This document shows, piece by piece, positions 10,274 through 39,989 of a stretch of DNA of 64,000 bases (its first letter is position 1; each line of letters starts with the position of its first letter). This DNA is from a virus: IMG/VR virus record IMGVR_UViG_3300009149_006183, positions 1 to 64,000 of that record. One strand, 5' to 3'. The notes below the pieces were generated by a model that worked only from the letters and a program-made list of their open reading frames with translations, did not search any database and was not told the origin of the DNA. A program made the position numbers and the translations under genes.

Positions 10274-10750
10274 TTATTCTAAATCTATGATTTCTCCCAA
10301 ATCCGACTCATTTAATTTTTTAGCTTTTTCGTTAATAATAGCGTTAGTGCAGATCTTTAAGTCCAAAGGATTAAACTTAATAAAAAAAAGATATTTATGT
10401 TCATTCTTATTATAAACTATTCTTTTTATTTTGCAATCTATAGTATCTTCATTTATATGTAATTTACCTTTTAGTTCACACTCCATTGGAGACAACTCTA
10501 TTGCTGTTTTATAATTAAAAATAGATAAATATTGTTGTATAGTTAGTGGGACATATATAGCAATTAAAGCAGAACGAGGTAATGATATATTTATATAAGA
10601 TATATCATCAATCAAAATTGTATGACCTTCAATAGAGACATAATCTTTGTTGGACGGGATACAGCACCTTAATATGTTATTACTATCTAACATATGAAAA
10701 TCCAGTCTTAAACACTGCATCTTCTTTAGCCTTAAGTAGCCCAGATTCAA
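10274..10750 (-). CDS. Hypothetical protein
   Basis: ORF fills the gap between uvrD and the Maf gene; probable start is MLDSNN near 10693. Confidence 0.55.
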   Translation of the reverse strand: MNLGYLRLKKMQCLRLDFHMLDSNNILRCCIPSNKDYVSIEGHTILIDDISYINISLPRSALIAIYVPLTIQQYLSIFNYKTAIELSPMECELKGKLHINEDTIDCKIKRIVYNKNEHKYLFFIKFNPLDLKICTNAIINEKAKKLNESDLGEIIDLE

Positions 10751-12635
10751 AAAGAAACTGACTAGGATATGCCGGCTTATGTCTTAACTCTCGCTGTTTG
10801 TCTCTATACTTCCTATTTTGGCAATACGATAAATGAAGATGCTTTTTGGCCCTTGTCATCCCGACATAGCATAGTCTAGTTTCCTCTTCCAGTGCTTCTT
10901 TCGCCGCCGATGGGTTTGCGGCCCCTGTAATCGGCCACACATGAGGTAAAATCCCATGTTCTACCCCAACCATAAAGACAATAGGGAATTCCAAACCCTT
11001 ACTTGCGTGCAAAGTCATTAATGTCGCACTATTTTTATCATTCTCTTTATCGCTAGAAGCTATTAAAGATATATTTTGTAAATAGGCGTCTATACTCTTG
11101 TTCCCTTTACTGAACTCTGTCGCATTTATGATAAGCTCGCTAACATTATTTTTCCTGTCGAACAATTCACTTTCTTTTTTACAAAATGTATCGAGATGAC
11201 CCATATAGTCAAATTCGTTAACGAGATAAGATAGGCAGTCACCGGCATTTAGTTTTTCTAATTTCTTAGAAAATGTATTAAATATTTTCATAGAACCGTT
11301 CTTTACAGCAGCCCTATTGCTATAATCATCTATATTAGAACAAATATCCAATATAGAAGTGTTATGCTCCTTGCTTTTATTCTCTATCATTCCAATATTT
11401 ATACTGCCCAAACCGGGTATTATTTCAGCGACTCTGTGAAATGCCAAGATATCTTTTTTATTAGTTGCGAATTTTAAAAGAGCCAGGCAGTCTTTAATCT
11501 CTTTCCTATCAAAAAAGTTTTGACCACCTATAACAGTGTATGGGACTCCTGCGTTAGATAATGCTGTTTGTAAATCAAGAGACATTCTATTTAGTCTATA
11601 GAAAATAGCGATATCGGAGAAGTCCCAGCCGTAATTATTAACGTATTCTTTGATTTTAGAAGCTATCTGTTGGGCCTCATATGATGAATCAAAGAACGAA
11701 GAGCAATGAACGGGATCACCACTAGCGTTATCTGTTAAAAACTCATTCTTTAAATGCGTAGTATTATACTTTATAAGATTACTAGCCTTTTCTATTATCT
11801 GAGGAGTAGATCTATAATTTTTGGACAGCATAATCTGCCGACAATTATACTCTTCAATAAAATCTAATATATTTTTATATCTAGCACCACGAAAGCTATA
11901 TATGCTCTGCTCTACGTCCCCGATTAAGACTATATTAGCGTCTTTGCCGCCAAGAAGCTTGACCATCTTAAATTGTGCATAATTGGTGTCTTGAACTTCA
12001 TCTACCTGGATATATTTAAAATACCCTCTCAACTGATCTAATACTTTTTCATTACTTTCAAGCAGTCCAACGGTGTTATATAATAACCCTGTAAAATCGC
12101 AGGAATTATTTTCTGATAGTTGTTTTAAATACTCCTCCTCTATCTCTCTATATATAGAGTTCTCCGTATCGTCTAATATCTCTTCTGTGGTCATCAGAAG
12201 CTCCCTGGAGCGATTAAGATGGTCCACAATGCGAGATACGTCAATACTATTTTTTGTTTTGCTGTATGCTAGTTGTTTAATAATTTTTGAAATGTAGTCT
12301 TTCTGGTCAGAGTCATCCAGTATAGACATAGAATGATTATAACCTAATGTTCCTCCGAATACGCGTAACAAATTAGCACATAATGCGTGAAATGTCCCCA
12401 CAAACATTTTAGTATTATCATTACCGAGTCTACTAAATATTCTATTTCGCATTTCCTTAGCAGCCTTATTCGTGAATGTTATACTAAGAATACTACTAGG
12501 GGCGACACCGGATTCTATTAATTTAATAGTTCTTTCTACTAGCATAGTAGTCTTACCGGAGCCAGGAACGGAAGTTACAAGACATGGACCGTCAAGATGA
12601 TTAACGGCTTCGATTTGCTGCTCATTTAATTGCAT
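10683..12635 (-). CDS. uvrD: UvrD/PcrA SF1 helicase
   Basis: LNEQQ, PGSGKT, TFTNKAA, VDEVQD, GDVEQSIYSFRGA, NYRS, TLHASKGLEF, EETRLCYVGMTRA. Confidence 0.96.
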   Translation of the reverse strand: MQLNEQQIEAVNHLDGPCLVTSVPGSGKTTMLVERTIKLIESGVAPSSILSITFTNKAAKEMRNRIFSRLGNDNTKMFVGTFHALCANLLRVFGGTLGYNHSMSILDDSDQKDYISKIIKQLAYSKTKNSIDVSRIVDHLNRSRELLMTTEEILDDTENSIYREIEEEYLKQLSENNSCDFTGLLYNTVGLLESNEKVLDQLRGYFKYIQVDEVQDTNYAQFKMVKLLGGKDANIVLIGDVEQSIYSFRGARYKNILDFIEEYNCRQIMLSKNYRSTPQIIEKASNLIKYNTTHLKNEFLTDNASGDPVHCSSFFDSSYEAQQIASKIKEYVNNYGWDFSDIAIFYRLNRMSLDLQTALSNAGVPYTVIGGQNFFDRKEIKDCLALLKFATNKKDILAFHRVAEIIPGLGSINIGMIENKSKEHNTSILDICSNIDDYSNRAAVKNGSMKIFNTFSKKLEKLNAGDCLSYLVNEFDYMGHLDTFCKKESELFDRKNNVSELIINATEFSKGNKSIDAYLQNISLIASSDKENDKNSATLMTLHASKGLEFPIVFMVGVEHGILPHVWPITGAANPSAAKEALEEETRLCYVGMTRAKKHLHLSYCQNRKYRDKQRELRHKPAYPSQFLFESGLLKAKEDAVFKTGFSYVR

Positions 12636-20576: not shown

Positions 20577-23009
20577 TTAATCAAATAAACTTTCATCCCC
20601 AATTCCCTTTTTGCCAGATCTTTTTTTATCTTTTCTCAACTTGTCAAATTTATCAGCCATAGTAAGACCGAATGCCTCTAACTCAATTTTATTCTCTCTA
20701 TTTCTTCCCCTATTTACTGATTTAAATTCGTCCTCAAAAAATCTGTCTTCAACCAAGCATTTTAAAGAGTCTCTTGTAAAAGTATTACCCGTTTTATATG
20801 CCAATTCTCGTAAATTTTTAAAAGGACGGTTATCAACAATTTCCTGAGCAGTTTCAGCACTAACCCCCTTACACATAAGGGAAGGCAAAATCTGCGTCTT
20901 GGATGAACCAGACCCCTTTTTAACAATTTCATAATCCACATTGCACTTATTAATATCTCTACCTAAAAGATCTATATTAAACTTTTTAAGATCTTTCTCT
21001 AAAATCTTAACTTTTTTGTGACTATTTTGTTGTTTTCTATAATTCTCCACATTTAAATAACAACACATGAATTCATCAGTATAATTTGCTTTTAAATAGG
21101 CTGTAACGTAAGAAGTGTAGGCGTACGAACAGGAATTTTTACTTATAACATATTTATTATCATCTTTTTTATCATATATTGCATAATTGTGTTGGCTAGA
21201 AGCCATAGTTAAATTATAAGTTTTTTCTTTTCTAACTTTTTTAACCGAAACAACTTTGCATTTCTTCAAATCTTGCATATTTTCGCTATATATTATTTCT
21301 AGATCGTCCCGTAAAATTTCACTAACAGTATATTCTTTTCCGTCTGAACAATAAAATTTATGCTCTAATGTGCATTCTAAAGTCATACCATTATTTAAAT
21401 TTATTTGGTATATATCTTTTTCTCCAGTTTCAAAAACATCTATTATAGTGTCATCAATGATAGTTCCGTCAATATAAGAATCAATAACCAGATTTGATCT
21501 TTTATTTTTATCTAATTCTATTAGCTCATCAATTGTATACAAATTACCAGTTATTTTATCTTTTACTCTCATTTTTCCAGAGATACAATGCGCCCTGTTA
21601 AATCCATAAGCGGCGAAAGGCGTGATAAACCTTTCCCAGTATTGCTCGGATAAATTTTCTGGAAGATCGTTTTCATTAGCCCCCTTAATAAATTGCTTTT
21701 TATATTTTTCAATTAATTCTACTTTTTTCTTACCTATACCCTTGATTACGATATAACCGTCTGTTACAGAAAAACCAGCCAAAGCATTACAAATCTGCAT
21801 AATTTGTTCTTGGTATACTAATAACCCATAAGTATCCTTTAGATATGGTTTTACATGTTTTTCTATTGATGGGTGAAAATATTCTACGTTTTTATGCCCT
21901 TTTTTTCTGGCACAATATTCAGGAATTGAGGCCATCGGGCCTGGGCGGTATAGCGATATTGCCGCCATAATATCATTAAAAGATGTCGGCTCTATCTCTT
22001 GCATCGTCTCTTGCATCCCATGCCCCTCGCATTGAAAAACACCCACAAGTTTGCCCGTCTTATATAGATCATAAGTTTTTTCGTCAGTCAATTTTAAATT
22101 CTTGATATCGACAGAAATGCCATAATTATTTTTTATCATCTCTGCGGTTTTTTGGATAACGGTTAAAGTACTAATGGCGAGAATGTCAAATTTTATTAGA
22201 CCCATATCCTCTAAATCTTCATAGGGATATTGCGTTGCAAAACCGGCCTTAGATGTTCTTAATGGGGCGAGATCACATAGCGGACTATTAGAGATTACAA
22301 TTCCGGCGGCATGAATTCCATAATTAGATATTGTCCCCTCTATGTCTTTAGCGTAATTTAAAAAATTAGGTATCTTATCTATATGTTTTCTAAAATCTGG
22401 ACAATGATCATAGGCGTCCTGTATCGTTTTAATCGCATGATCGTTGCCATCTTCATCCGTCATTTTCAGAATTGCCCCACGAGCATCTGGGAGAGTGTCT
22501 ATTATCTCTTTTACTTTAGCCTCATTCAGTGTTTTATTGTCCTTGTCCCCTTTATGAAAAGCATTTGCAACATCTAAAGCTTTTCCTATTCTGCGAATGG
22601 CAGACTTTAGTTTTAATGAAGAATAAGTTCCGATATTCCCCACGTTTTCTCTTCCATATTTATCAATTATATAGTCATAAACTTCTTGACGACGAAAATA
22701 ATCAAAATCTGAGTCGATATCAGGGAATCCCGCTCTAGCAAAAGCTCTTCTAAGTGGTAAAAACTCACCCTGTGGACGAGCCTCTGTCATCCCCAAGCCA
22801 TAAGCTGTCCAACTATTTATATCGTTTTTATGCCCCTTCTTATCTATGTTCTTCTTCCATAAATTATAAAAATTATCAAGATTATTTATAGAGTTTATTC
22901 CGTCTGTCACCTCTAAGATATCCAACTCCTTATCTATCTTTTGTAGAATAGACGGATCGGAAATTTTAAGACTACCGATTATATCATTCCTTTTTTCTAC
23001 CGATGTCAT
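20577..23009 (-). CDS. dnaE: DNA polymerase III alpha, catalytic (palm/fingers/HhH) part, with mini-intein
   Basis: FPDIDSDF, GIHAAGIVI, GLIKFDIL, GVFQCE, SLYRPGPM, TYGLLVYQEQIM, YGFNRAH, YLKANY. Confidence 0.95.
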   Translation of the reverse strand: MTSVEKRNDIIGSLKISDPSILQKIDKELDILEVTDGINSINNLDNFYNLWKKNIDKKGHKNDINSWTAYGLGMTEARPQGEFLPLRRAFARAGFPDIDSDFDYFRRQEVYDYIIDKYGRENVGNIGTYSSLKLKSAIRRIGKALDVANAFHKGDKDNKTLNEAKVKEIIDTLPDARGAILKMTDEDGNDHAIKTIQDAYDHCPDFRKHIDKIPNFLNYAKDIEGTISNYGIHAAGIVISNSPLCDLAPLRTSKAGFATQYPYEDLEDMGLIKFDILAISTLTVIQKTAEMIKNNYGISVDIKNLKLTDEKTYDLYKTGKLVGVFQCEGHGMQETMQEIEPTSFNDIMAAISLYRPGPMASIPEYCARKKGHKNVEYFHPSIEKHVKPYLKDTYGLLVYQEQIMQICNALAGFSVTDGYIVIKGIGKKKVELIEKYKKQFIKGANENDLPENLSEQYWERFITPFAAYGFNRAHCISGKMRVKDKITGNLYTIDELIELDKNKRSNLVIDSYIDGTIIDDTIIDVFETGEKDIYQINLNNGMTLECTLEHKFYCSDGKEYTVSEILRDDLEIIYSENMQDLKKCKVVSVKKVRKEKTYNLTMASSQHNYAIYDKKDDNKYVISKNSCSYAYTSYVTAYLKANYTDEFMCCYLNVENYRKQQNSHKKVKILEKDLKKFNIDLLGRDINKCNVDYEIVKKGSGSSKTQILPSLMCKGVSAETAQEIVDNRPFKNLRELAYKTGNTFTRDSLKCLVEDRFFEDEFKSVNRGRNRENKIELEAFGLTMADKFDKLRKDKKRSGKKGIGDESLFD
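21135..21587 (-). mobile_element. Mini-intein (151 aa) in DnaE
   Basis: FNRAH|CISGKMRV...ECTLEHKF (block B)...TYNLTM...HNY...ISKN|S; removal restores FNRAHSCSYAY. Confidence 0.9.
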
Positions 23010-28701: not shown

Positions 28702-29315
28702 TTATTATCTTCCCATTTTTTCTGTTTTAATCTAAAAGGCGGAATATGATATTCGTTTTCACCTAATATAAAATTATAAACCTCTATCAATTCGTTAATA
28801 TTCTCGGATGATATAAGAAAATCTATTTTCTGATAAACCTTATCAAGAAAGTCTAATTCGTTTTCCTCGTAGTCCACCTGTTCTAAATACATTAATCCTA
28901 AAGATGATATTTCTAATGAGATATCATCAAATATTTTTTTAGTCTCTTCTCTACCAGACTGATAATCTTTTTTAATACTATTTATTAAAAAAGGTAGTTC
29001 CTGCTCTCCTGATACGTCTATACTCCCGCCCAACATCTCTAGAGCCTTTCTCCAGGAGATATTATTCAAATTAGCATATAGGGATACCACATCTCCACTT
29101 TTCTTACATCCAAAACAATAATAGTTTTGATGAGACCCAGGCTTGTCATATACGGTAAATGATGGTTTAGTCTCTGTGTGCCCGGGCATCGGGCAAAGAT
29201 ATAGCAACTTGTCTCTATAGGTTGATACGGGAATATGTCCAGCAGATTCTAAAAGATCAGTTATTAGATTGTTACTTTGGACCTGTTCTATAATTATTAA
29301 ATTTTTATTATCCAT
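28677..29315 (-). CDS. Stand-alone primase CHC2 zinc-binding domain protein
   Basis: CPMPGHTETKPSF...YYCFGCKKSGD...W..AL; no TOPRIM. Start placed at ATG 29315 overlapping the dnaB stop. Confidence 0.85.
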   Translation of the reverse strand: MDNKNLIIIEQVQSNNLITDLLESAGHIPVSTYRDKLLYLCPMPGHTETKPSFTVYDKPGSHQNYYCFGCKKSGDVVSLYANLNNISWRKALEMLGGSIDVSGEQELPFLINSIKKDYQSGREETKKIFDDISLEISSLGLMYLEQVDYEENELDFLDKVYQKIDFLISSENINELIEVYNFILGENEYHIPPFRLKQKKWEDNKWKKQSIK

Positions 29316-32136
29316 TATTACAGTTAGAAAGAAACTCATCAAAGTTATTTGAGGTCTCATCCTTTTTAATATGTTCATCGAAATTCAGGGCATCGCTATC
29401 ATTTATTTTATTCATAATCTCTTCCTGGTTCTGAGTGTAAAAAGTAGTATTAATACTTTTAATTAAACTAATTTTTGGGTCTACTTCTAACATGGTTTTA
29501 TTAGACCCGTTAGAAAATACGTTTTTGCCGTATCTAGATTTAATCTGTATAAATTCTATTCTTGTATTATCATTGGCCTGTTGAGGCTTCATCTGCGCAT
29601 ACATAGCATCTGAATCAGCACTATATTGATGAGATCCATGAATATCTTCGGAATAAAAAACACCCTTAGAGCCTGACTTCCTGTATCTTTTTAATCCCTC
29701 TCTTCCTAGTTGAGCTCCAGAAACAACACAAAGCCCCTCTTCATGAATAGCCCCTGGTTTTCCCATCGTTCTTAGATATTTTAACATATCTCCAACTTCT
29801 AAATCGTTTCTATCTCTACGGTGGGTTGTTTCGTCGGGAATTAAATTTGCGATATAGTCAACAACAACAAGATTAGGCTTGAACACGTCGATATTTCGCT
29901 CTATTTCCCTGCGGATAGTAGACACTGGAATTTGCTCTGGAGCCTCCATAATATAAAAACTACAATGGTGCTCATTCTCGATTGATTTCACTTGGAACTC
30001 AAAATCGCGAGCTTTATTTAACTGATCTACAGATAAGAATTTTGGATGTTGCAATTGCTCAAATGGTATTTGTGTTTCTCTAGACATAAATTTTTGATAC
30101 ATCTTCTCCCTTGGCATCTCTAACGGGACATATAATACATTTTTATGAGATAATTTCCATACATTAATAGCGACGTTTAGCATCATCGTAGAATTATGCG
30201 TAACAATATTATTAGAAACAAAATTATGAGATCCAGCCATACAGACCTCATATGTCTGTTCTTTTCCAATATATTCTATGTTAGATATCTCATCCCAATA
30301 AATATCACTATTCGCTATATCTAATAATTCTTGATCATTATTTAGATATTGAGCAATACGAGACAAAACAGCCCTGCTTATAGAGCTATCCTTATTACCG
30401 CAATGTCCTAAATCTTGTTTCCAATTATCATAAACCCCTCTTCTATAATATCTTCTACATCCAGTTTTAGACTTATTATATTCTTTAAACTTGCTATCTA
30501 ATAACTCCCAAATTTTTGATGGGATAACATCTCTATTAGTATTAGATTTTGAGCTTTTCTCTTTTATCCTATCTATATTGTCTAATAATAATTGCTGTTT
30601 TTTACCGGTGAAACCAATTTGTTCGTAAAATGAATGTATTTGAGGACAATCCGTTATATTAACTCTCCACGTAAATCCCTTATCGATTTTAACAGAATCT
30701 TTTTTATAATATGATTTATACTTTTTTATAGACGCTATTATTCCAAATTTTAATAAAAGATCCCTAACATCTTTTGACAATTGTTCTGATGAAGTGTAAT
30801 AAGAAATAACATATTTTTCTCTATTTCCACTCGCAGATATTTGTAGCCCTCCATCTACAGAATACATCATTCTCAATAAAGAAGATAAGGATTTTTTATT
30901 CCACGAAAATACATCATTATGGATTCTTTTATCAACAGCCTTACACCCTATGTCAAATTTATTAATAAGATCTTGAGCTCCACGTATTCCATATTGTCCC
31001 TTAATTCTAATACCATGTTTGTGTTTACAGACCATTTTCATGTTAATTTTATAACAAGAAGATTTCATAATTTTCACAATAGCGGGGTCCAGGTTCGTAG
31101 AAGTAATGTTTGTAAAAGTTCCACCCTCTGAAAGCAATCCGCCTAAAACGACAGGAATTCCTTCTTGCACAGAAATTTTACCGAATGGAGATTTTCTAGA
31201 AATGGCTAGCGTATCTCCTTTCGTTAATGTAGATGTCGCTCTATATCCCTCCCAGGATAAATGTCTATGATCTTCTGTAGACTTTATTTCATGACCAAGA
31301 CGCGTTGTAATTTTATAACAGTCTTTCTTTCCAGTATCTATAACATCTAAAATATTTACAAATTCTATTTTATGATTACAAGGATTAAATTGCATCAACT
31401 TATCTTTTCGTCCTAACCGATTTCTCCTATATAATTCTTCAAGCGTGACCCTCGTTCCATCTTCTAAATTCTGCAAATTATTATAATGTCCGCACTTATA
31501 GCCTCCGACATCTCCACAAAATAAGATTAGAGAACCAGGAGCAAACCCCGTTCCCAATGTCTCATCTATTTCTTTAATATGGCATAGTATCGTATCATCT
31601 CCACCCTTTTTATTTCTATTTTCTACTAGTTTATTATAGAATATCGGGGCGTAATCCGAAACAGATTCATAATATATTTTATTTTCACTCGAAGAATCTA
31701 CTACTATATCACCCAGATTAAGAGCTAATCTTTTGGCGGCAATCAGTCCGCCACTTATTTTCGTGTCTTTTTGATAATCTTCAATGCATTTTAAAGTATT
31801 TCTATCTACAGATGCCTCAAAAATTTTATTCTTCAAGTCTGGATAATCATTGATATCGACATTTAACATATTAGATATATTAAATATATGCTCTTGAGCC
31901 TGTATATCTAATTTGGCCTTAACATTCTTTTTAATAAAAGAGATAAAGGTCTTTCTGGTTAATAATACCCCGTCGTTAAACGATGCCGTAATCGCTCTGA
32001 GGATGTAGTGATGTGCCTCATCGAAGTATTTAGTACTTAGCGGGCTAGTCAACCAGTCAGACACTAATTCCTTATTCTGTAAAAGAAGACTGATAAAGTC
32101 TTTCTCTATTTTAAGTTTTTCTTTATAGTCTATCAT
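29308..32136 (-). CDS. dnaB: DnaB-like replicative helicase with intein
   Basis: GFAPGSLILFCGDVGGYK|STMM (Walker A after splicing), LEM, VVVDY, AQLGR, DSD, KSRYG. Confidence 0.92.
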   Translation of the reverse strand: MIDYKEKLKIEKDFISLLLQNKELVSDWLTSPLSTKYFDEAHHYILRAITASFNDGVLLTRKTFISFIKKNVKAKLDIQAQEHIFNISNMLNVDINDYPDLKNKIFEASVDRNTLKCIEDYQKDTKISGGLIAAKRLALNLGDIVVDSSSENKIYYESVSDYAPIFYNKLVENRNKKGGDDTILCHIKEIDETLGTGFAPGSLILFCGDVGGYKCGHYNNLQNLEDGTRVTLEELYRRNRLGRKDKLMQFNPCNHKIEFVNILDVIDTGKKDCYKITTRLGHEIKSTEDHRHLSWEGYRATSTLTKGDTLAISRKSPFGKISVQEGIPVVLGGLLSEGGTFTNITSTNLDPAIVKIMKSSCYKINMKMVCKHKHGIRIKGQYGIRGAQDLINKFDIGCKAVDKRIHNDVFSWNKKSLSSLLRMMYSVDGGLQISASGNREKYVISYYTSSEQLSKDVRDLLLKFGIIASIKKYKSYYKKDSVKIDKGFTWRVNITDCPQIHSFYEQIGFTGKKQQLLLDNIDRIKEKSSKSNTNRDVIPSKIWELLDSKFKEYNKSKTGCRRYYRRGVYDNWKQDLGHCGNKDSSISRAVLSRIAQYLNNDQELLDIANSDIYWDEISNIEYIGKEQTYEVCMAGSHNFVSNNIVTHNSTMMLNVAINVWKLSHKNVLYVPLEMPREKMYQKFMSRETQIPFEQLQHPKFLSVDQLNKARDFEFQVKSIENEHHCSFYIMEAPEQIPVSTIRREIERNIDVFKPNLVVVDYIANLIPDETTHRRDRNDLEVGDMLKYLRTMGKPGAIHEEGLCVVSGAQLGREGLKRYRKSGSKGVFYSEDIHGSHQYSADSDAMYAQMKPQQANDNTRIEFIQIKSRYGKNVFSNGSNKTMLEVDPKISLIKSINTTFYTQNQEEIMNKINDSDALNFDEHIKKDETSNNFDEFLSNCNNG
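30193..31494 (-). mobile_element. Intein (434 aa) with in-frame LAGLIDADG endonuclease, inserted in the DnaB P-loop
   Basis: K|CGHYNN...STEDH...LGGLLSEGG...LRMMYSVDGG...TYEV...HNFVSNNIVTHN|S. Confidence 0.93.
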
Positions 32137-32934: not shown

Positions 32935-34605
32935 TTATATCTCTAATTGTTTAACATCATCATAGATAGTGGAACCAGCACACTGAGAAGGAGGTCTATT
33001 AGCCATAGTGCAACAATCTTTTGCCCACGACCGCATCTCGTCAATAACGTCACTTCGCATGACAGATAGGGGTTTAAAAGATTTTAATGCTGATAGAATA
33101 TCGTTATCAACTATAGTCCTTTTAGATTCTGAAAAACCAACGAATAGAGCAGAAACGATAGCTTTTTCAATTTCTGCCCCACTATAGTTTTCGCTATTTA
33201 ATGCGAGACAATCGATATCAAAATCGCCATCATTTCTTTTATACCTTTTTAACAGGGCTTTAAAGATAGCTTTTCTTTCATATAGGTGGGGAAGGTCAAC
33301 AAAAAATATCTCATCAAATCTTCTCATAAATTCTGGAGGTAATTGCGTATAATCGTTAGCCGTGGCGAATACGAATACGGGTTTTTCTTTTTCTTCCATC
33401 CAAGTTAAAAACGTAGAGATAACTCTATTTGTAGTTCCCCCATCTGTTTGCCCGCTTGATTTTCCACCAGACAAACCTTTTTCTATTTCGTCCAGCCAAA
33501 GAATACACGGGGATACAACCTCAGCCAGTTTAATCGAATCTCGCGATCTCTCTTCGCTTTCTCCCTGTAATGATCCGAATAGTCTACCGAAGTCTAATCT
33601 CAAAAGCGGCATCTGGTATAAGCTAGCGACAGCTTTAGCACATAAGCTTTTTCCTGTCCCACTGCAACCGATAGTTAATACTCCCTTTGGACATGGAATA
33701 CCATACTCTGCGGCTTCGGGATGGAATGCTAATAGCCGAAGTTTTAGCCAATCAACAAGATTATCAAGCCCACCGATATCATCCATAGAGACTTTAGGTT
33801 CTAAGAATTCTAATGTGCCTTTTTTCCTAATAATTTGTCGCTTCTCTTTAAGTATTGATGGAATAACAAACTTTTTATGTAGAACTAGAGATTTTGCATA
33901 AGCCATCTGAGCCTCTACTAGAGTTAAACCACTAACAGATTTAATAAGGGTGTTTTCATTTTTTGTTGTTTCTTTTTTTAGGTTAGGTAATTTACCTTGT
34001 TTCTCGACAGCTTTAACCATACTCCATAGCGCTTTTTTAATTTCTAAATCGTTTGGGTATGGAAAATCTACAACAGAAATACTATTTTCTAATGCTGGAG
34101 ACGTTCTAAAAGATGGGCCAGTCATAATTATATGTGTCATAGAATTTATAGATGCGAATGTCTTTAATCTTCGTTCTATATCTGGAGTAACAACATCTGG
34201 GGCTATCCACCTATGAAAATCTAAAAGTATATAGATATTTCCAGATATTCCATTAGTCTTCATAAACTTCGCGTTTTGAATATCCTTCTCAGCCTCTCCT
34301 ATTATTTTAGTTAATATCTCTTCTGGGATAGTCAAGTCTGTTGTAGTCGCGGCGTCTTTTTGTCCAGAAAGCAAATCGATAGCTCCCAAATAGCAATCCC
34401 AAACGTGCGTTCTGTATCCTCTAACCGCAGACAAATATTTAAAATAATCTTTAAGTCTTTTTTCCTCACTACATGTCAAGAAAATAAGAGGTGAGCGGCT
34501 TTTAAGTAGAGCCAGTATATCATTGTGAAAATCTTGAGTCGCCATCATCTCTAGATTCTGTTCGTAATTAGACACGCCTATCTTTTCTTCGTCTTGGGCC
34601 ATCAA
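32935..34605 (-). CDS. Ycf46-like AAA+ ATPase
   Basis: EEKR, LLDFH, DIGGLDNL, GCSGTGKS, WLDEIEK, ATAN, LPPEFMRRFDEIFFVDLP, SGAEIE. Confidence 0.9.
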   Translation of the reverse strand: MMAQDEEKIGVSNYEQNLEMMATQDFHNDILALLKSRSPLIFLTCSEEKRLKDYFKYLSAVRGYRTHVWDCYLGAIDLLSGQKDAATTTDLTIPEEILTKIIGEAEKDIQNAKFMKTNGISGNIYILLDFHRWIAPDVVTPDIERRLKTFASINSMTHIIMTGPSFRTSPALENSISVVDFPYPNDLEIKKALWSMVKAVEKQGKLPNLKKETTKNENTLIKSVSGLTLVEAQMAYAKSLVLHKKFVIPSILKEKRQIIRKKGTLEFLEPKVSMDDIGGLDNLVDWLKLRLLAFHPEAAEYGIPCPKGVLTIGCSGTGKSLCAKAVASLYQMPLLRLDFGRLFGSLQGESEERSRDSIKLAEVVSPCILWLDEIEKGLSGGKSSGQTDGGTTNRVISTFLTWMEEKEKPVFVFATANDYTQLPPEFMRRFDEIFFVDLPHLYERKAIFKALLKRYKRNDGDFDIDCLALNSENYSGAEIEKAIVSALFVGFSESKRTIVDNDILSALKSFKPLSVMRSDVIDEMRSWAKDCCTMANRPPSQCAGSTIYDDVKQLEI

Positions 34606-35922: not shown

Positions 35923-37017
35923 TTAAGCCACTATAAGATATTCAACACTATCAGATTTTTTCCTATACTTATACTGGTGATTTACTGCATAAACTTCTCT
36001 TATTTTCCTAACTTCAGAAATCACTTCTTTAATTTTGTCTATATTCGACCAGCTTGAATCATTGTAACTTATTGCCCAGACAGGGATATAAATTAACTCC
36101 GAAATTAGCTGCCTAAAATTTTCTTCGTAATTACTTATATCAACAAATTTTTTGCAGTTTCCACTAAAAATATCTGTACTTTGTCGGATATACGACTCGC
36201 AGAAACCATACATCGCAGCGTAATCACTTTGTGCGGCCCCGTACGGAGGATCAATATAGGCGATATCTACGGCTGGCTTGTCGTTCTTTAATAATTCTAT
36301 ACAGTCTTTGTTATAAACCTCATGCCCACCAAGATCATTTTCTATATTTAAATTCTTCCACTCTATTTTATTAAAGTTAATTTGCTGCCCACGATTTCTA
36401 TGATGCTTAATGCGATGGTCTACCTTAGCCAAGATTTGCCCGTTATTTAATCTGCCGCCGATAAAGCACCTATCCATTATAAATAATTGTATATTAGCGA
36501 AAACTAGAGCTCTTTTAGTCTTATCTAAAGCGGAATCGCTAGGGAATACCTTATAGATATTATAATATATCCTATCTAAATTATTTGCTTCTTCTTCTGT
36601 AAACCTATCGATAAAATTATCTAAAACGAAATGATTATGGTTATCGAATCCTTCGTCATTTTTTATAAGAAACTCAGATTCGTCTGTAGATATTTTCACT
36701 ATATTGTTTTTGACAAAAGCTTCCGCATAAACAGAAGAAGATAAAAGAATATCATTAGATACAACCCTCTTCCCCAACAATTTCATCATCATAGAAACAC
36801 AGGCACTACCACAAAATAAATCTAGAATTGAATCATATTCTATATTGTTCTTTTTTAAAACATTTATAATTTCTACAATCAAATCTCTTTTATTACCGAT
36901 ATATGGGTTTTTAAAATTTTTAATTATATTTCTAAAATATAATATATTCGACTCTTTTGTATTGACACAAGATTGACTAACAAAATCTATTTCTTCTGGG
37001 CAACTGAATTTTACCAT
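35923..37017 (-). CDS. DNA adenine methyltransferase (D12/alpha class)
   Basis: PYIGNK, DLFCGSACVS, SND, YIDPPY, ISY, EYL. Confidence 0.92.
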   Translation of the reverse strand: MVKFSCPEEIDFVSQSCVNTKESNILYFRNIIKNFKNPYIGNKRDLIVEIINVLKKNNIEYDSILDLFCGSACVSMMMKLLGKRVVSNDILLSSSVYAEAFVKNNIVKISTDESEFLIKNDEGFDNHNHFVLDNFIDRFTEEEANNLDRIYYNIYKVFPSDSALDKTKRALVFANIQLFIMDRCFIGGRLNNGQILAKVDHRIKHHRNRGQQINFNKIEWKNLNIENDLGGHEVYNKDCIELLKNDKPAVDIAYIDPPYGAAQSDYAAMYGFCESYIRQSTDIFSGNCKKFVDISNYEENFRQLISELIYIPVWAISYNDSSWSNIDKIKEVISEVRKIREVYAVNHQYKYRKKSDSVEYLIVA

Positions 37018-37020
37018 TAT

Positions 37021-39777
37021 TTATACCTTAATATCTTTAATATTAAATGCTGGTTCTGTCTGATATATCTTTTTTCTTTTTTTTCCGTGAGCGGAAAGAT
37101 ATTTACAACTATCTTGTATATCAACCACAGTGGCCGAGTCTTTTACCCTGCCAGATGGAGAGGTATAAGGTCTTAGAACTCTTCCCACTCTTTGCAAAGC
37201 ACGAGTCTGACTTTTTCCCCCACCGGCAAGGATTAGAGTGTCAAGAGGTTTACAGTCAATTCCTTCATCGAAAATCGAGGTTGCGACAGTCACTCCTGCC
37301 CTACCTTCTCTCATTTTTTGCAGGTGATCTTTTCTTTGTTTGCTAGAATGTTCGCCATGTAGAAAAACACTACCATCTATCAGTTTTTCAAGAATCTTTC
37401 CATGACTAACATGCTGACATAAAATTAAAACGAGTCTTCCCTGCTCCTCAAAATTTTTAGCTATTTTAGCTATATATTGATTTCTTTGTAAATTTTCGAC
37501 AATGCCCGTTTTATAATATTCATGATATGAGAATAAATCTTCCTTTGGCATTCCGAGATCAAACGGCAACAGGTAAATATCTGGTCGAATCAAATATTTA
37601 TTAGGATGTTCTATTAAATATGATGCTGTAATATTGCAAATTTGCCTACCAAAACAAGCATCAATCAAAATATCATCTCCCTTGTCTCTCCAGGGAGTAG
37701 CACTTAGCCCCCATCGATAACGGGCGGAAATAGAGTTATCTGCTATTATTTGAGCCGTTTCTGATGCCCAATGCTGACAATTGTGAACCAGCATCCCATT
37801 TGCGAAAAAACAATGAGTTTTTTCTACCGAAATATCATAAACAGTATCTTCATTTATATTCTCAATGCTTTCTATCTCCATATATTTTATACTGCATAAA
37901 TGATGGGATATATTCTTCGACAAGGGGGCGTATTCTTTGAGTGGCTTTTTTTGACAAATATAAGATATAATACCTTCTTGCTTTTTGAATAGTGGTTTTT
38001 CCATATTTATTAGAGAACCATTCAGAACACAATTTAACCTCTTCAAAAGAAAATCCTTCAGTATGAAGTCTAATTCCTGGGCCATGTGCCGACCCGTCAT
38101 CTCCGATCCATAAAGCGAGTCCAATATGTCCGATATTATTAAGCCATTCTGTTGTAATTCTTTTCTTACCGATAGCATATGCGATCTGGCATGCTCTAAA
38201 AAGATCTGGGAGGCAAGGAGTTCTAAAACAAATAGACATCTTTCCGAACCCTTTATTTTCTGCTTCATAATATTTTGGAAATAAATTTTTAAAAATATTT
38301 GCTTTGTACTTTGCCCATTCCTTTTGACATAATCCATGATTCCAACAAAATCTTGCGTTTTTACTCCTAACAGAAGGAAAAGTAATAAAAGAATCTCCCA
38401 AAAGAGTACCACAAATTGCTTGAAACTCAAACTGTGATAATTTAAAGTCATATAAAATATTTTTCTTGTCATGACCATAAATGTATTTTCTATAAGAAGA
38501 TCCCCCTTTGTTCTTAATAAAAAGATCCAAGGAGTTATATCGTAAATTAACTTTTTTTCCACATCCGCATTTACATAAAGGCGCCGAGGCAACCATTTGT
38601 TCAAATTTTTCATTCCATTCTGATCTACTACGTTTTTTGATTTGATGGCCCAATACATATTTTGGATATCTACTAGGGCTTTTTGATCGCACATCGATTT
38701 TTGTTCCACATCCGCATTGACAAAGGACAAAATCTTGTCTTTTGTTTCTAAATTCCCTGCTTGGACCCATCCTCTTTTTGTCTTGATTAAATGATTTTTT
38801 GTGCATTTTATTGACTTCCCAGAACAAAGCCTTATCTTAATTAATTTTTTCTTACCTTTATTTACAAAATGAGTTATTTTGTTCCATACAGCACTAGCTC
38901 CATTAAAACTAAGTATTTCCTCTCCAATAAATTTATTTAATTCTCTCATTTTTACATGACCAAAATTTTTAACAAAAACAAGAGCGTCTCCTGTTATGCA
39001 CTCGTCAGCCATAAAACCTTTTGCCGACTGTATTAACAATAGAATATCGTTTTTTTTCTGCTCTATTACTTTTAATTCTTCTTTTGATACCTTTTCCTTA
39101 TCTTCGTCATCGAATCTAATATATTTACCGCCCAATGATCGAACTGCCGTTTGGACAGTCATAACGTTTATATCTTTAATATCAAACTTTCCATTTCCAA
39201 TTATTCCAACCCCCAACGGCGAACCATTATATCTCAAAAATTTACCAAACTCTTGCTGTGTCTGCTGGAGTAAATCTATAGATGGAACATAAAAAACAAA
39301 TGGAGATACACCGATCTCTTGGATTATGCCAGCAGCTATAGCAGTCTTGCCAGACCCTGTTGGGCACTTTATTAGCCCTCTTTGCATCTCAACAGACTTT
39401 TTTATTACTTCAGTTTGGTAATCTCTAAACTCAAAATCTGCCGACATCTCTAATTCTATATTTTTACTTACGGCATCTCTTATATCAAATATCTCTAACT
39501 CGATACCGTTAGATACTAAAAAGTCTCTGGCTTTATTAAAAAGTCCTGTGGGGAAATGAGTGCCTTTCTTTTTTATAGAACACTTACACGACCTTTCATT
39601 GAAGTGCAAAGTACTTTCTATCCCATCCCAATTTTTATTGCCATATTTTATTTTAAAAATGGCAGTTTCCGGACGATAACCAAGAAGCTTTCTTAGACCT
39701 TGATATACGTCAGAGGGGAGCCGGTCAGCGATATAAGTTACAGTATTAGAAACGTATAGTTTTACTTTTTCACTCAT
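37021..39777 (-). CDS. SF2 (UvsW/Res-like) helicase with intein
   Basis: RDYQ, PTGSGKT, DE|CQH after splicing, GLSATP, FDEGID, QRVGRVLR. Confidence 0.92.
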   Translation of the reverse strand: MSEKVKLYVSNTVTYIADRLPSDVYQGLRKLLGYRPETAIFKIKYGNKNWDGIESTLHFNERSCKCSIKKKGTHFPTGLFNKARDFLVSNGIELEIFDIRDAVSKNIELEMSADFEFRDYQTEVIKKSVEMQRGLIKCPTGSGKTAIAAGIIQEIGVSPFVFYVPSIDLLQQTQQEFGKFLRYNGSPLGVGIIGNGKFDIKDINVMTVQTAVRSLGGKYIRFDDEDKEKVSKEELKVIEQKKNDILLLIQSAKGFMADECITGDALVFVKNFGHVKMRELNKFIGEEILSFNGASAVWNKITHFVNKGKKKLIKIRLCSGKSIKCTKNHLIKTKRGWVQAGNLETKDKILSFVNADVEQKSMCDQKALVDIQNMYWAIKSKNVVDQNGMKNLNKWLPRRLYVNADVEKKLIYDITPWIFLLRTKGDLLIENTFMVMTRKIFYMTLNYHSLSFKQFVVLFWEILLLLFLLLGVKTQDFVGIMDYVKRNGQSTKQIFLKIYFQNIMKQKIKGSERCLFVLELLASQIFLEHARSHMLSVRKELQQNGLIISDILDSLYGSEMTGRHMAQELDFILKDFLLKRLNCVLNGSLINMEKPLFKKQEGIISYICQKKPLKEYAPLSKNISHHLCSIKYMEIESIENINEDTVYDISVEKTHCFFANGMLVHNCQHWASETAQIIADNSISARYRWGLSATPWRDKGDDILIDACFGRQICNITASYLIEHPNKYLIRPDIYLLPFDLGMPKEDLFSYHEYYKTGIVENLQRNQYIAKIAKNFEEQGRLVLILCQHVSHGKILEKLIDGSVFLHGEHSSKQRKDHLQKMREGRAGVTVATSIFDEGIDCKPLDTLILAGGGKSQTRALQRVGRVLRPYTSPSGRVKDSATVVDIQDSCKYLSAHGKKRKKIYQTEPAFNIKDIKV
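37780..39000 (-). mobile_element. Intein (407 aa) in helicase motif II; endonuclease encoded in a different frame
   Basis: DE|CITGDALV...KCTKNHLIKTKRGW...VYDISVEKTHCFFANGMLVHN|CQH. Confidence 0.93.
37862..38827 (-). CDS. LAGLIDADG homing endonuclease with two CxCGCG modules, nested out-of-frame in the intein
   Basis: CQCGCG..KYVLGH, CKCGCG..KYIYGH, ICGTLLGDS, LALWIGDDGS, LHTEGFS. Probable start ATG 38806 after GGGAAG. Confidence 0.88.
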   Translation of the reverse strand: MFWEVNKMHKKSFNQDKKRMGPSREFRNKRQDFVLCQCGCGTKIDVRSKSPSRYPKYVLGHQIKKRSRSEWNEKFEQMVASAPLCKCGCGKKVNLRYNSLDLFIKNKGGSSYRKYIYGHDKKNILYDFKLSQFEFQAICGTLLGDSFITFPSVRSKNARFCWNHGLCQKEWAKYKANIFKNLFPKYYEAENKGFGKMSICFRTPCLPDLFRACQIAYAIGKKRITTEWLNNIGHIGLALWIGDDGSAHGPGIRLHTEGFSFEEVKLCSEWFSNKYGKTTIQKARRYYILYLSKKATQRIRPLVEEYIPSFMQYKIYGDRKH

Positions 39778-39989
39778 TAGATACTATTTCGAGGGGGTTT
39801 TTTCATCTTTTTCTTTGTTTGTTGAGGAGTTTTCCATTTTTTTATAACATCTTTTGTGCTATCGGGGACAATAGAAGGATCATATAACGAGAAATCCTGC
39901 CCCTTATTATCTCTTTTTTTAAAATTGGGTTGATCGTCAACAGAGGGACCGGTGTCATTAAGATATGTCGCTGTTTTTATTACTTTCAT
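39777..39989 (-). CDS. Small basic hypothetical protein
   Basis: 70-aa ORF with TAATG coupling to the helicase. Confidence 0.55.
   Translation of the reverse strand: MKVIKTATYLNDTGPSVDDQPNFKKRDNKGQDFSLYDPSIVPDSTKDVIKKWKTPQQTKKKMKKPPRNSI

Follow-up and report, generated by a model that had tools for sequence, protein, structure and literature searches.

We examined an intein within a superfamily 2 (SF2) DNA helicase gene that is carried on a 64,000-nucleotide stretch of viral DNA (IMG/VR record IMGVR_UViG_3300009149_006183, positions 1 to 64,000; hereafter the window). The locus is very probably a mobile unit of intein plus homing endonuclease, inserted in motif II of a phage SF2 helicase (DE|CQH, the bar marking the splice junction), which keeps its two functions in two reading frames of the same strand. 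It is well supported that the endonuclease frame is under selection for its protein sequence, and the interior of the host frame only for the lack of stop codons.

Both open reading frames (ORFs) lie on the minus strand. The long one (37021..39777) runs uninterrupted for 918 amino acids (aa), whereas the nested one (37862..38827) gives 321 aa when read from a TTG, or 314 aa from an ATG at 38806, in the +2 (equivalently -1) frame relative to the helicase. Pfam profiles matched ResIII, Helicase_C and Intein_splicing in the long ORF, the last over residues 271-666 with a long internal gap (E 8e-18), and LAGLIDADG_2 (PF03161, E 3e-24) in the nested ORF. PHROGs agreed with these assignments, naming the long ORF a DNA helicase and the nested ORF a homing endonuclease with a LAGLIDADG motif. 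A first-pass annotation, made from the letters of the window, had placed an intein at 37780-39000 with a nuclease hidden in an overlapping frame. These limits match ours exactly, helicase residues 260-666 being flanked by ...FMADE and CQHWAS, i.e. inside motif II, and the endonuclease ORF sits entirely within them. All the motifs quoted there are present (C1 in CITGD, TKNH, VYDIS and HN|C in one frame; two CxCGCG...GH modules, ICGTLLGDS and LALWIGDDGS in the other), the shifted readings given for them are correct (VNADVEQK from CQCGCG, and FVVLFWEILLLLFLLLGV from the first LAGLIDADG region), and the two profile matches bear out a splicing domain in the host frame and a nuclease in the nested one.

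The same annotation had set the absence of stops from both frames over the nested ORF against an estimate of about one stop per 13 codons, and our counts place it beyond chance. The -1 frame contains 64 stops over the remainder of the helicase ORF and 0 in codons 313-636. In genes of the window, stops occur at a rate of 8.5 per 100 codons in the offset frame equivalent to that of the host, which predicts ~27 in 324 codons where 0 were observed; arithmetic from this rate puts the chance of zero host-frame stops at ~1e-12. With the endonuclease protein held fixed and its codons redrawn from window usage, the mean was 12.7 host-frame stops and the minimum 3 (5000 trials). Shuffling the ORF's own synonymous codons gave a mean of 5.8 stops, and 0 of 2000 shuffles reached zero. 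NTA codons are depleted three-fold in the endonuclease ORF (3.4% against 10.7%).

Scans with the endonuclease protein yielded 3 IMG/VR loci, 80 metagenome loci and 80 loci from species-representative genomes. All loci that match the full-length endonuclease show the same layout, with the host ORF on the same strand in the +1 offset. They comprise 54 non-redundant viral and metagenomic loci (endonuclease identity 31-56%, guanine plus cytosine (GC) content 24-64%) and ~24 cyanobacterial genomes, in which dnaX genes carry the same frame offset. Stops in the intein frame of homologues would have spoken against the first-pass annotation, and each of the 54 loci has 0. The endonuclease ORF of the relatives, ~310-380 codons long, is enclosed by a host ORF that stays open in the +1 offset and spans 900-1400 codons. 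One clade has DnaX (DNA_pol3_delta2, gamma3) as its host protein and the rest have SF2 helicases (ResIII + Helicase_C); the insertion point is always DE|C...HN|C(H/Q), the Walker B / motif II site. In six loci (L021, L093, L102, L104, L108 and L165) an open host frame accompanies a disrupted endonuclease frame, as would be expected if frame 0 is the one that has to be translated. Such loci are the expected decay stage of a homing cycle.

To compare the frames we used a codon alignment of 47 endonuclease ORFs and pairwise amino-acid identity. Over the interior, the endonuclease frame is 41% identical, against 21% for the host frame and 20% for the never-translated third frame. The host-frame interior is therefore under no protein-level constraint beyond remaining free of stops. 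The pattern is reversed over the first 30 codons, where two successive bins gave 59% then 43% for the intein frame and 32% then 22% for the endonuclease frame, because the endonuclease ORF starts inside intein block B (KCTKNHLIKTKRGW).

Structure prediction with AlphaFold2 (AF2) divides the locus in a similar manner. The endonuclease (50 homologues) was modelled with a mean predicted local distance difference test score (pLDDT) of 88.9, just residues 1-20 falling below 50. A Foldseek search with this model returned I-WcaI (6x1j, E 1e-12) and I-SceI (1r7m, E 7e-12), with target-normalised template modelling scores of 0.72-0.73, and the predicted structure matches the pseudo-dimeric alpha-beta-beta-alpha-beta-beta-alpha fold of the LAGLIDADG_2 / I-SceI-like monomeric class. 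For the host-frame intein (40 homologues), residues 1-96 and 370-407 reached pLDDT 92-97 and residues 97-368 only ~30; both terminal parts are predicted to be beta-rich, forming a split HINT fold. In these models each protein is disordered where the other is folded. The profile matches, the frame identities and the AF2 models thus agree with the view of the first-pass annotation that one interior is read in two frames, with protein-level selection on the endonuclease frame and filler in the host frame. The term filler holds for the bulk of the interior and fails at its ends, since the endonuclease shares its first ~31 codons with the folded end of the N-terminal splicing domain, block B included, and its last ~10 with the start of the C-terminal one.

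Residue conservation was found in both frames. Intein residues C1, T67, H70, D389, H406 and N407 are invariant in 40 homologues, and the +1 residue in the window is Cys (CQHW); by sequence criteria the element is a class-1 intein. The endonuclease carries two LAGLIDADG helices in a single chain, GTLLGDS with D138 and WIGDDGS with D236 and D237. D236, D237 and both Cys triplets are invariant and D138 is nearly so. For the Cys3-His modules the single Pfam match was a sub-threshold one, to DUF6527 (E 0.0013). Coordinates of all parts are collected in Table 1.

Table 1. Parts of the dual-coded helicase locus, in window coordinates
Feature	Coordinates	Strand	Basis or remark
SF2 (ResIII + Helicase_C) DNA helicase precursor gene, 918 aa	37021..39777	-	ORF list, Pfam, PHROGs
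N-extein, residues 1-259, ending ...FMADE in motif II / Walker B	39001..39777	-	
Class-1 intein, 407 aa, C1 (CITGD) through the final HN, with Cys at +1	37780..39000	-	
N-terminal splicing domain, intein residues 1-96; block B TKNH at 67-70	38713..39000	-	pLDDT 92-97
Host-frame filler, intein residues 97-369, stop-free	37894..38712	-	predicted disordered, pLDDT ~30
C-terminal splicing domain, intein residues 370-407, blocks F and G (VYDISVE...VHN)	37780..37893	-	pLDDT 93-96
C-extein, first residues CQHWAS	37021..37779	-	
Nested LAGLIDADG_2 endonuclease gene, 314 aa, -1 frame, predicted I-SceI/I-WcaI-like fold	37862..38806	-	
Endonuclease start and stop codons	ATG 38806..38804; stop 37864..37862	-	
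Shine-Dalgarno-like GGGAAG, 8 nt upstream of ATG 38806	38815..38820	-	anti-Shine-Dalgarno duplex -4.3 kcal/mol
Second conserved in-frame start (Met13)	38768..38770	-	NTG column in relatives
Endonuclease Cys3-His module 1 (CxCGCG...GH), residues ~27-54; C29, C31 and C33 invariant	38645..38728	-	
Endonuclease Cys3-His module 2, residues ~76-112; C78, C80 and C82 invariant	38471..38581	-	
LAGLIDADG motif 1, QAICGTLLGDS, catalytic D138	38390..38422	-	
LAGLIDADG motif 2, GLALWIGDDGS, D236 and D237 invariant	38090..38122	-	

The homing cycle predicts decay after fixation, and six relatives do have a broken endonuclease beside an open host frame. The endonuclease ORF of the window could likewise be an inactive relic, open merely because decay has not yet occurred, with only the host frame still of consequence. 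We consider this unlikely, as the ORF is full length and keeps all the invariant Cys, His and Asp residues, its predicted fold is of high confidence, and conservation across the family is twice as high in the endonuclease frame as in the control frames.

Conservation of start sites suggests that the endonuclease is likely translated by internal initiation at its own start. The column of ATG 38806 is ATG in 26 of 36 relatives. That of Met13 (38770) is NTG in 47 of the 47 relatives scored, its TG being forced because the column overlaps the conserved Gly-Trp of the intein; it is ATG in 18 of the 21 loci that have no ATG in the first column as against 13 of the 26 that do. Predicted pairing with the anti-Shine-Dalgarno (anti-SD) sequence before column-1 ATGs averages -5.6 kcal/mol, compared with -2.1 kcal/mol at the other ATGs within those ORFs (Mann-Whitney p 1e-10), and column-2 ATGs in loci without the first ATG average -4.3 kcal/mol (p 1e-4). 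The window itself, at -4.3 kcal/mol, is within the range of the phage's own bona fide genes. The start put forward in the first-pass annotation, ATG 38806 after GGGAAG, is therefore favoured by the conserved ATG and the Shine-Dalgarno-like motif.

The endonuclease might instead be made by -1 ribosomal frameshifting from the helicase frame, which would yield a fusion of N-extein, partial intein and endonuclease. The frame relation is the right one for this, and a correctly phased A_AAA_AAT (ACA-AAA-AAT, block B T-K-N; 38790..38803) lies 3 nt past ATG 38806. However, the heptamer is not conserved, with relatives encoding MHKR, MYK and other variants, and in the dnaX clade the endonuclease frame is closed by stops that fall between the start columns, shortly before the start. 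On these grounds we rank frameshifting as a minor rival, and an improbable one. It is the ATG and the Shine-Dalgarno-like motif that are conserved instead, and the fusion would be without the block B His and the C-terminal splicing domain. Internal initiation remains the preferred route.

Concerning the host frame, the interior could be a regulatory or disordered linker that tunes splicing rather than neutral filler. Its length is always ~270 residues and it is never deleted across the 54 loci; AF2 also shows a few low-confidence helices. The constant length is, however, accounted for by the overlapping endonuclease, and an identity no different from that of the untranslated control frame (21% against 20%) together with pLDDT ~30 makes a functional interior very improbable.

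The layout is real and strongly non-random. It is true that the window is a metagenome assembly and that the one public DNA run listed as containing it probably derives from the source sample itself, with no RNA run listed beside it, but the possibility that two compensating assembly indels displaced an ordinary in-frame intein endonuclease out of frame is negligible, because such errors would not keep the host frame open (they would leave ~27 stops where none is present) and because ~78 independent assemblies, including those of cultured cyanobacteria and of Xanthomonas phage FoX3, share the same offset. Logan re-assembly contigs from that run (depth ~27; a comparison of contigs, not raw reads) are identical to the window over 37732-39200, with zero differences and zero gaps, a weak but consistent backing for the correctness of the sequence.

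Comparative, statistical and structural evidence hence supports the dual-coding interpretation well; splicing, expression and cleavage are what we infer from it. We propose the following model. Ribosomes translating the helicase would read through the intein in frame 0, as the open state of that frame implies, and produce a precursor in which a HINT domain of ~135 residues (intein residues 1-96 and 370-407) is interrupted by ~270 residues of unconstrained, probably disordered filler. To judge from its intact catalytic residues and predicted fold, the intein would then excise itself together with the filler and join the exteins as a helicase of 511 aa. Separately, other ribosomes would start at ATG 38806 in the -1 frame, as the conserved ATG and Shine-Dalgarno-like motif suggest, and release a free-standing endonuclease of 314 aa with two Cys3-His modules and an I-SceI-like double-LAGLIDADG core. 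By homology, this enzyme may cut intein-less alleles at the DE|CQH-coding site and so drive homing of the whole unit. Selection would act on the host frame just to exclude stops and on the -1 frame for protein sequence.

Several points weigh against this model. The filler is long and in one stretch strongly hydrophobic, which might interfere with folding, and splicing may not be efficient. The window's anti-SD score of -4.3 is reached by 15% of internal ATGs, and the Shine-Dalgarno-like signal partly coincides with a conserved intein-frame Gly plus Lys/Glu/Arg in loci that are phylogenetically related; the p-values given above are inflated because of this shared ancestry and these conserved Gly and basic or acidic residues. 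Intein-less helicase homologues do occur in IMG/VR, with DEVQHW or DEIQHW at the site and in one locus (L170) exactly DECQHW. These alleles are just 54-58% identical to the window in the C-extein and therefore demonstrate a sporadic distribution rather than recent homing in the window lineage.

As to the origin of the arrangement, the first-pass annotation had suggested that a free-standing nuclease gene invaded a mini-intein. In favour of this, the nearest outside relatives of the endonuclease include free-standing-looking ORFs (L066 and L076), and its core is of the LAGLIDADG_2 kind, unlike the LAGLIDADG_3 domain that the window's canonical DnaB intein carries. The scenario is tenable only in part, however. 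In-frame LAGLIDADG_2 domains are found in canonical inteins of Chloroflexi dnaX (L074, L070, L080 and L109), of an SNF2 helicase (L081) and of RecA (L067 and L122). Those of Chloroflexi dnaX occupy the identical DE|C...AN|CHMLS site as the out-of-frame dnaX inteins, and the one in the SNF2 helicase likewise sits at DE|C...N|CH. A shift from, or an exchange with, an in-frame intein endonuclease is therefore equally possible.

The accompanying proposal that stops were purged gradually after invasion had to be rejected as stated, since a single stop destroys the helicase. We looked at how readily the host frame might be open by chance. Synonymous shuffles reached 0 stops in up to 5% of cases for a truncated, 201-codon member (L050) and in ~2.5% for a full-length one (L051), and in <=0.5% for the other members with an endonuclease GC content above 50%. 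It is possible that the frame was open by chance in a GC-rich ancestor and was then held open by purifying selection as the element spread to phages rich in adenine and thymine.

In a tree of the endonucleases, sequences group by extein type, the window falling with L008 and L007 in a clade of CQHW helicases. The dnaX sequences form a single shallow clade (monophyletic, support 100), with much deeper branching in the helicase clades. Rooting the endonuclease tree gave no answer as to whether dnaX or helicase was the original host. As a tentative hypothesis, which we hold to be somewhat less probable than its negation, the dual-coded layout is a long-lived stable state: one ancient element targeting DE|C-H sites, always in the same offset, would have diversified to ~31% identity across phage SF2 helicases and given rise both to the cyanobacterial DnaX intein, by an extein switch between unrelated P-loop proteins, and to split helicase genes, its stability coming from the strict partition of constraint between the frames.

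A blastn search of GenBank phages with the helicase gave no match, and cultured phages with related elements are known. In Xanthomonas phage FoX3 (MT161383.1) the helicase gp40 (L173:1740-4274) holds a contiguous dual-coded intein, with a nested LAGLIDADG ORF of 252 aa (L173:2339-3097) in the same -1 offset. The GenBank record leaves this ORF unannotated, which fits the expectation of the first-pass annotation that in-frame annotation would miss the architecture; a second FoX3 record labels the gp40 region 'head morphogenesis'. Pectobacterium phages Ymer, Amona and others, also cultured, have a split form of the lineage. In Ymer (OP748252.2, L172:1731-4937) three mutually overlapping coding sequences on the same strand encode the helicase N-half with the N-intein, a LAGLIDADG endonuclease with one CxCGCG module, and the C-intein with the helicase C-half.

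Other variants were seen among the relatives. Homologous helicases in one group of loci (L002:2994-7067, L010, L015, L021 and L028) have 1-2 extra canonical inteins elsewhere (Hom_end_hint / LAGLIDADG_3), their genes encoding 1170-1400 aa. The endonuclease ORF of GC-rich members (L040, L041, L034, L042, L043, L045 and L046) extends to within 2-4 codons of the end of the intein, so that its C-terminal tail covers blocks F and G and with them the entire C-terminal splicing domain. Out-of-frame intein endonucleases of a second class (L057, L058, L059, L062 and L063; e.g. L059:1473-2687 inside L059:704-5212) have an N-terminal LAGLIDADG_2 core and a treble-clef-like C-terminal part (DUF2116). Their host ORF is in the +2 offset, not +1, and their host proteins are others, one of them terminase-like, which suggests an independent origin of dual coding.

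The window comes from a large phage in a subsurface metagenome and has a GC content of 34%. It also encodes DNA polymerase III alpha domains, a UvrD-like helicase and an AAA ATPase (20577..23009, 10683..12635 and 32935..34605). A DnaB-like helicase (29308..32136, minus strand) contains a canonical intein with an in-frame LAGLIDADG_3 domain (Pfam Intein_splicing 224-648, LAGLIDADG_3 420-508, and DnaB_C), so that canonical and dual-coded inteins coexist in this phage. At the SF2 helicase locus, the helicase ATG (39777) lacks a Shine-Dalgarno-like motif (+0.1 kcal/mol) and directly adjoins the end of an upstream ORF (39777..39989), and a gene for a D12-class Dam methyltransferase (35923..37017) begins 4 nt past the helicase stop. 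The helicase and its neighbouring genes look translationally coupled.

The locus offers a clean natural case of two proteins encoded by one piece of DNA, in which the selective regime can be read frame by frame, as protein sequence in one and as mere freedom from stops in the other. Gene callers and in-frame intein annotation overlook such endonucleases, FoX3 gp40 being an example. The family links the long-known DnaX intein to a large reservoir in phage helicases, and it connects contiguous, split and decayed forms of one element, which bears on how inteins acquire endonucleases and on the origin of split inteins. Given that FoX3 and the Pectobacterium phages are in culture, internal initiation, splicing in cis through a 270-residue filler and homing can all be tested directly. 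The endonuclease, an enzyme with additional Cys3-His modules, is also a candidate new meganuclease scaffold.

Out-of-frame endonucleases in inteins have been described before, and the novelty implied by the first-pass annotation was overstated. The title of a 2026 preprint reports one in a cyanobacterial dnaX intein (bioRxiv 10.64898/2026.09.14.751524), and an earlier preprint describes others (bioRxiv 10.1101/2025.01.02.630785). The cyanobacterial DnaX element (Nostoc, Tolypothrix, Anabaena and others) and that of the window are members of one endonuclease family, with 31-34% identity over residues 1-313. The two share both Cys3-His modules, the LAGLIDADG_2 core, strand, frame offset, an intein of the CxTGD...HN|CH type and a comparable insertion point (DE|C in Walker B), and their endonucleases fall into one alignment and one tree. 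The host differs, being a phage SF2 helicase in the window (DE|CQHW) and the clamp-loader protein DnaX in cyanobacteria (DE|CHMLS), and sequence diversity is far greater among the helicase-resident clades than within the compact dnaX clade. The Ssp (Synechocystis) DnaX intein itself is attributed to Gorbalenya 1998 in bioRxiv 10.1101/2025.01.02.630785.

In that earlier preprint, Gosselin, Arsenault and Gogarten described actinobacteriophage inteins with an endonuclease VII-like gene in frame 3 of the same strand, and LAGLIDADG and VSR-like intein genes that are antisense; they proposed invasion by free-standing endonucleases and regarded the layout as rare (bioRxiv 10.1101/2025.01.02.630785). 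As in the window, the endonuclease there lies between the splicing blocks in another frame, the host frame is open and independent translation is proposed. The proteins that host their inteins are DNA polymerase, minor capsid, terminase and thymidylate synthase proteins, none of them a helicase, whereas ours is a helicase. In contrast to the rarity noted for their inteins, the layout of the window family persists in at least 54 loci, down to ~31% identity. The word 'helicase' occurs zero times in the 2026 preprint (bioRxiv 10.64898/2026.09.14.751524), and the phage helicase branch of the dnaX-type element appears, with some uncertainty, to be unreported in these two preprints.

Related arrangements differ from that of the window in how host and endonuclease are joined. 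In fractured genes (Dassa et al. 2009, PMC2677866) an endonuclease with its own start and stop also lies between the intein halves. The host in the window is, by contrast, a single unbroken ORF of 918 aa, stop-free across the endonuclease, and its splicing would be in cis; the split form of the Pectobacterium phages qualifies as a fractured gene as Dassa et al. 2009 (PMC2677866) use the term. Canonical inteins, such as the DnaB intein of the window and those of Chloroflexi DnaX (L074 and L109), are likewise of class 1 with LAGLIDADG between blocks B and F; in Chloroflexi DnaX it is even a LAGLIDADG_2 core, at the same DE|C...N|CHML site. Their endonuclease is, however, a domain of the intein polypeptide and is without Cys3-His modules, and the splicing domain of Chloroflexi DnaX differs (CFRYED...VAN, with no penultimate His). 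The ShiLan-type HNH insertion in a phage methylase resembles our locus in that an alternative-frame endonuclease is hidden in an open host frame, but it is without a splicing domain and is thought to stay as a protein loop (PMC11855218), whereas the window has a complete intein. The idea of an out-of-frame intein endonuclease is thus already described; what the window and its relatives add is a new host protein and a large, deep clade.

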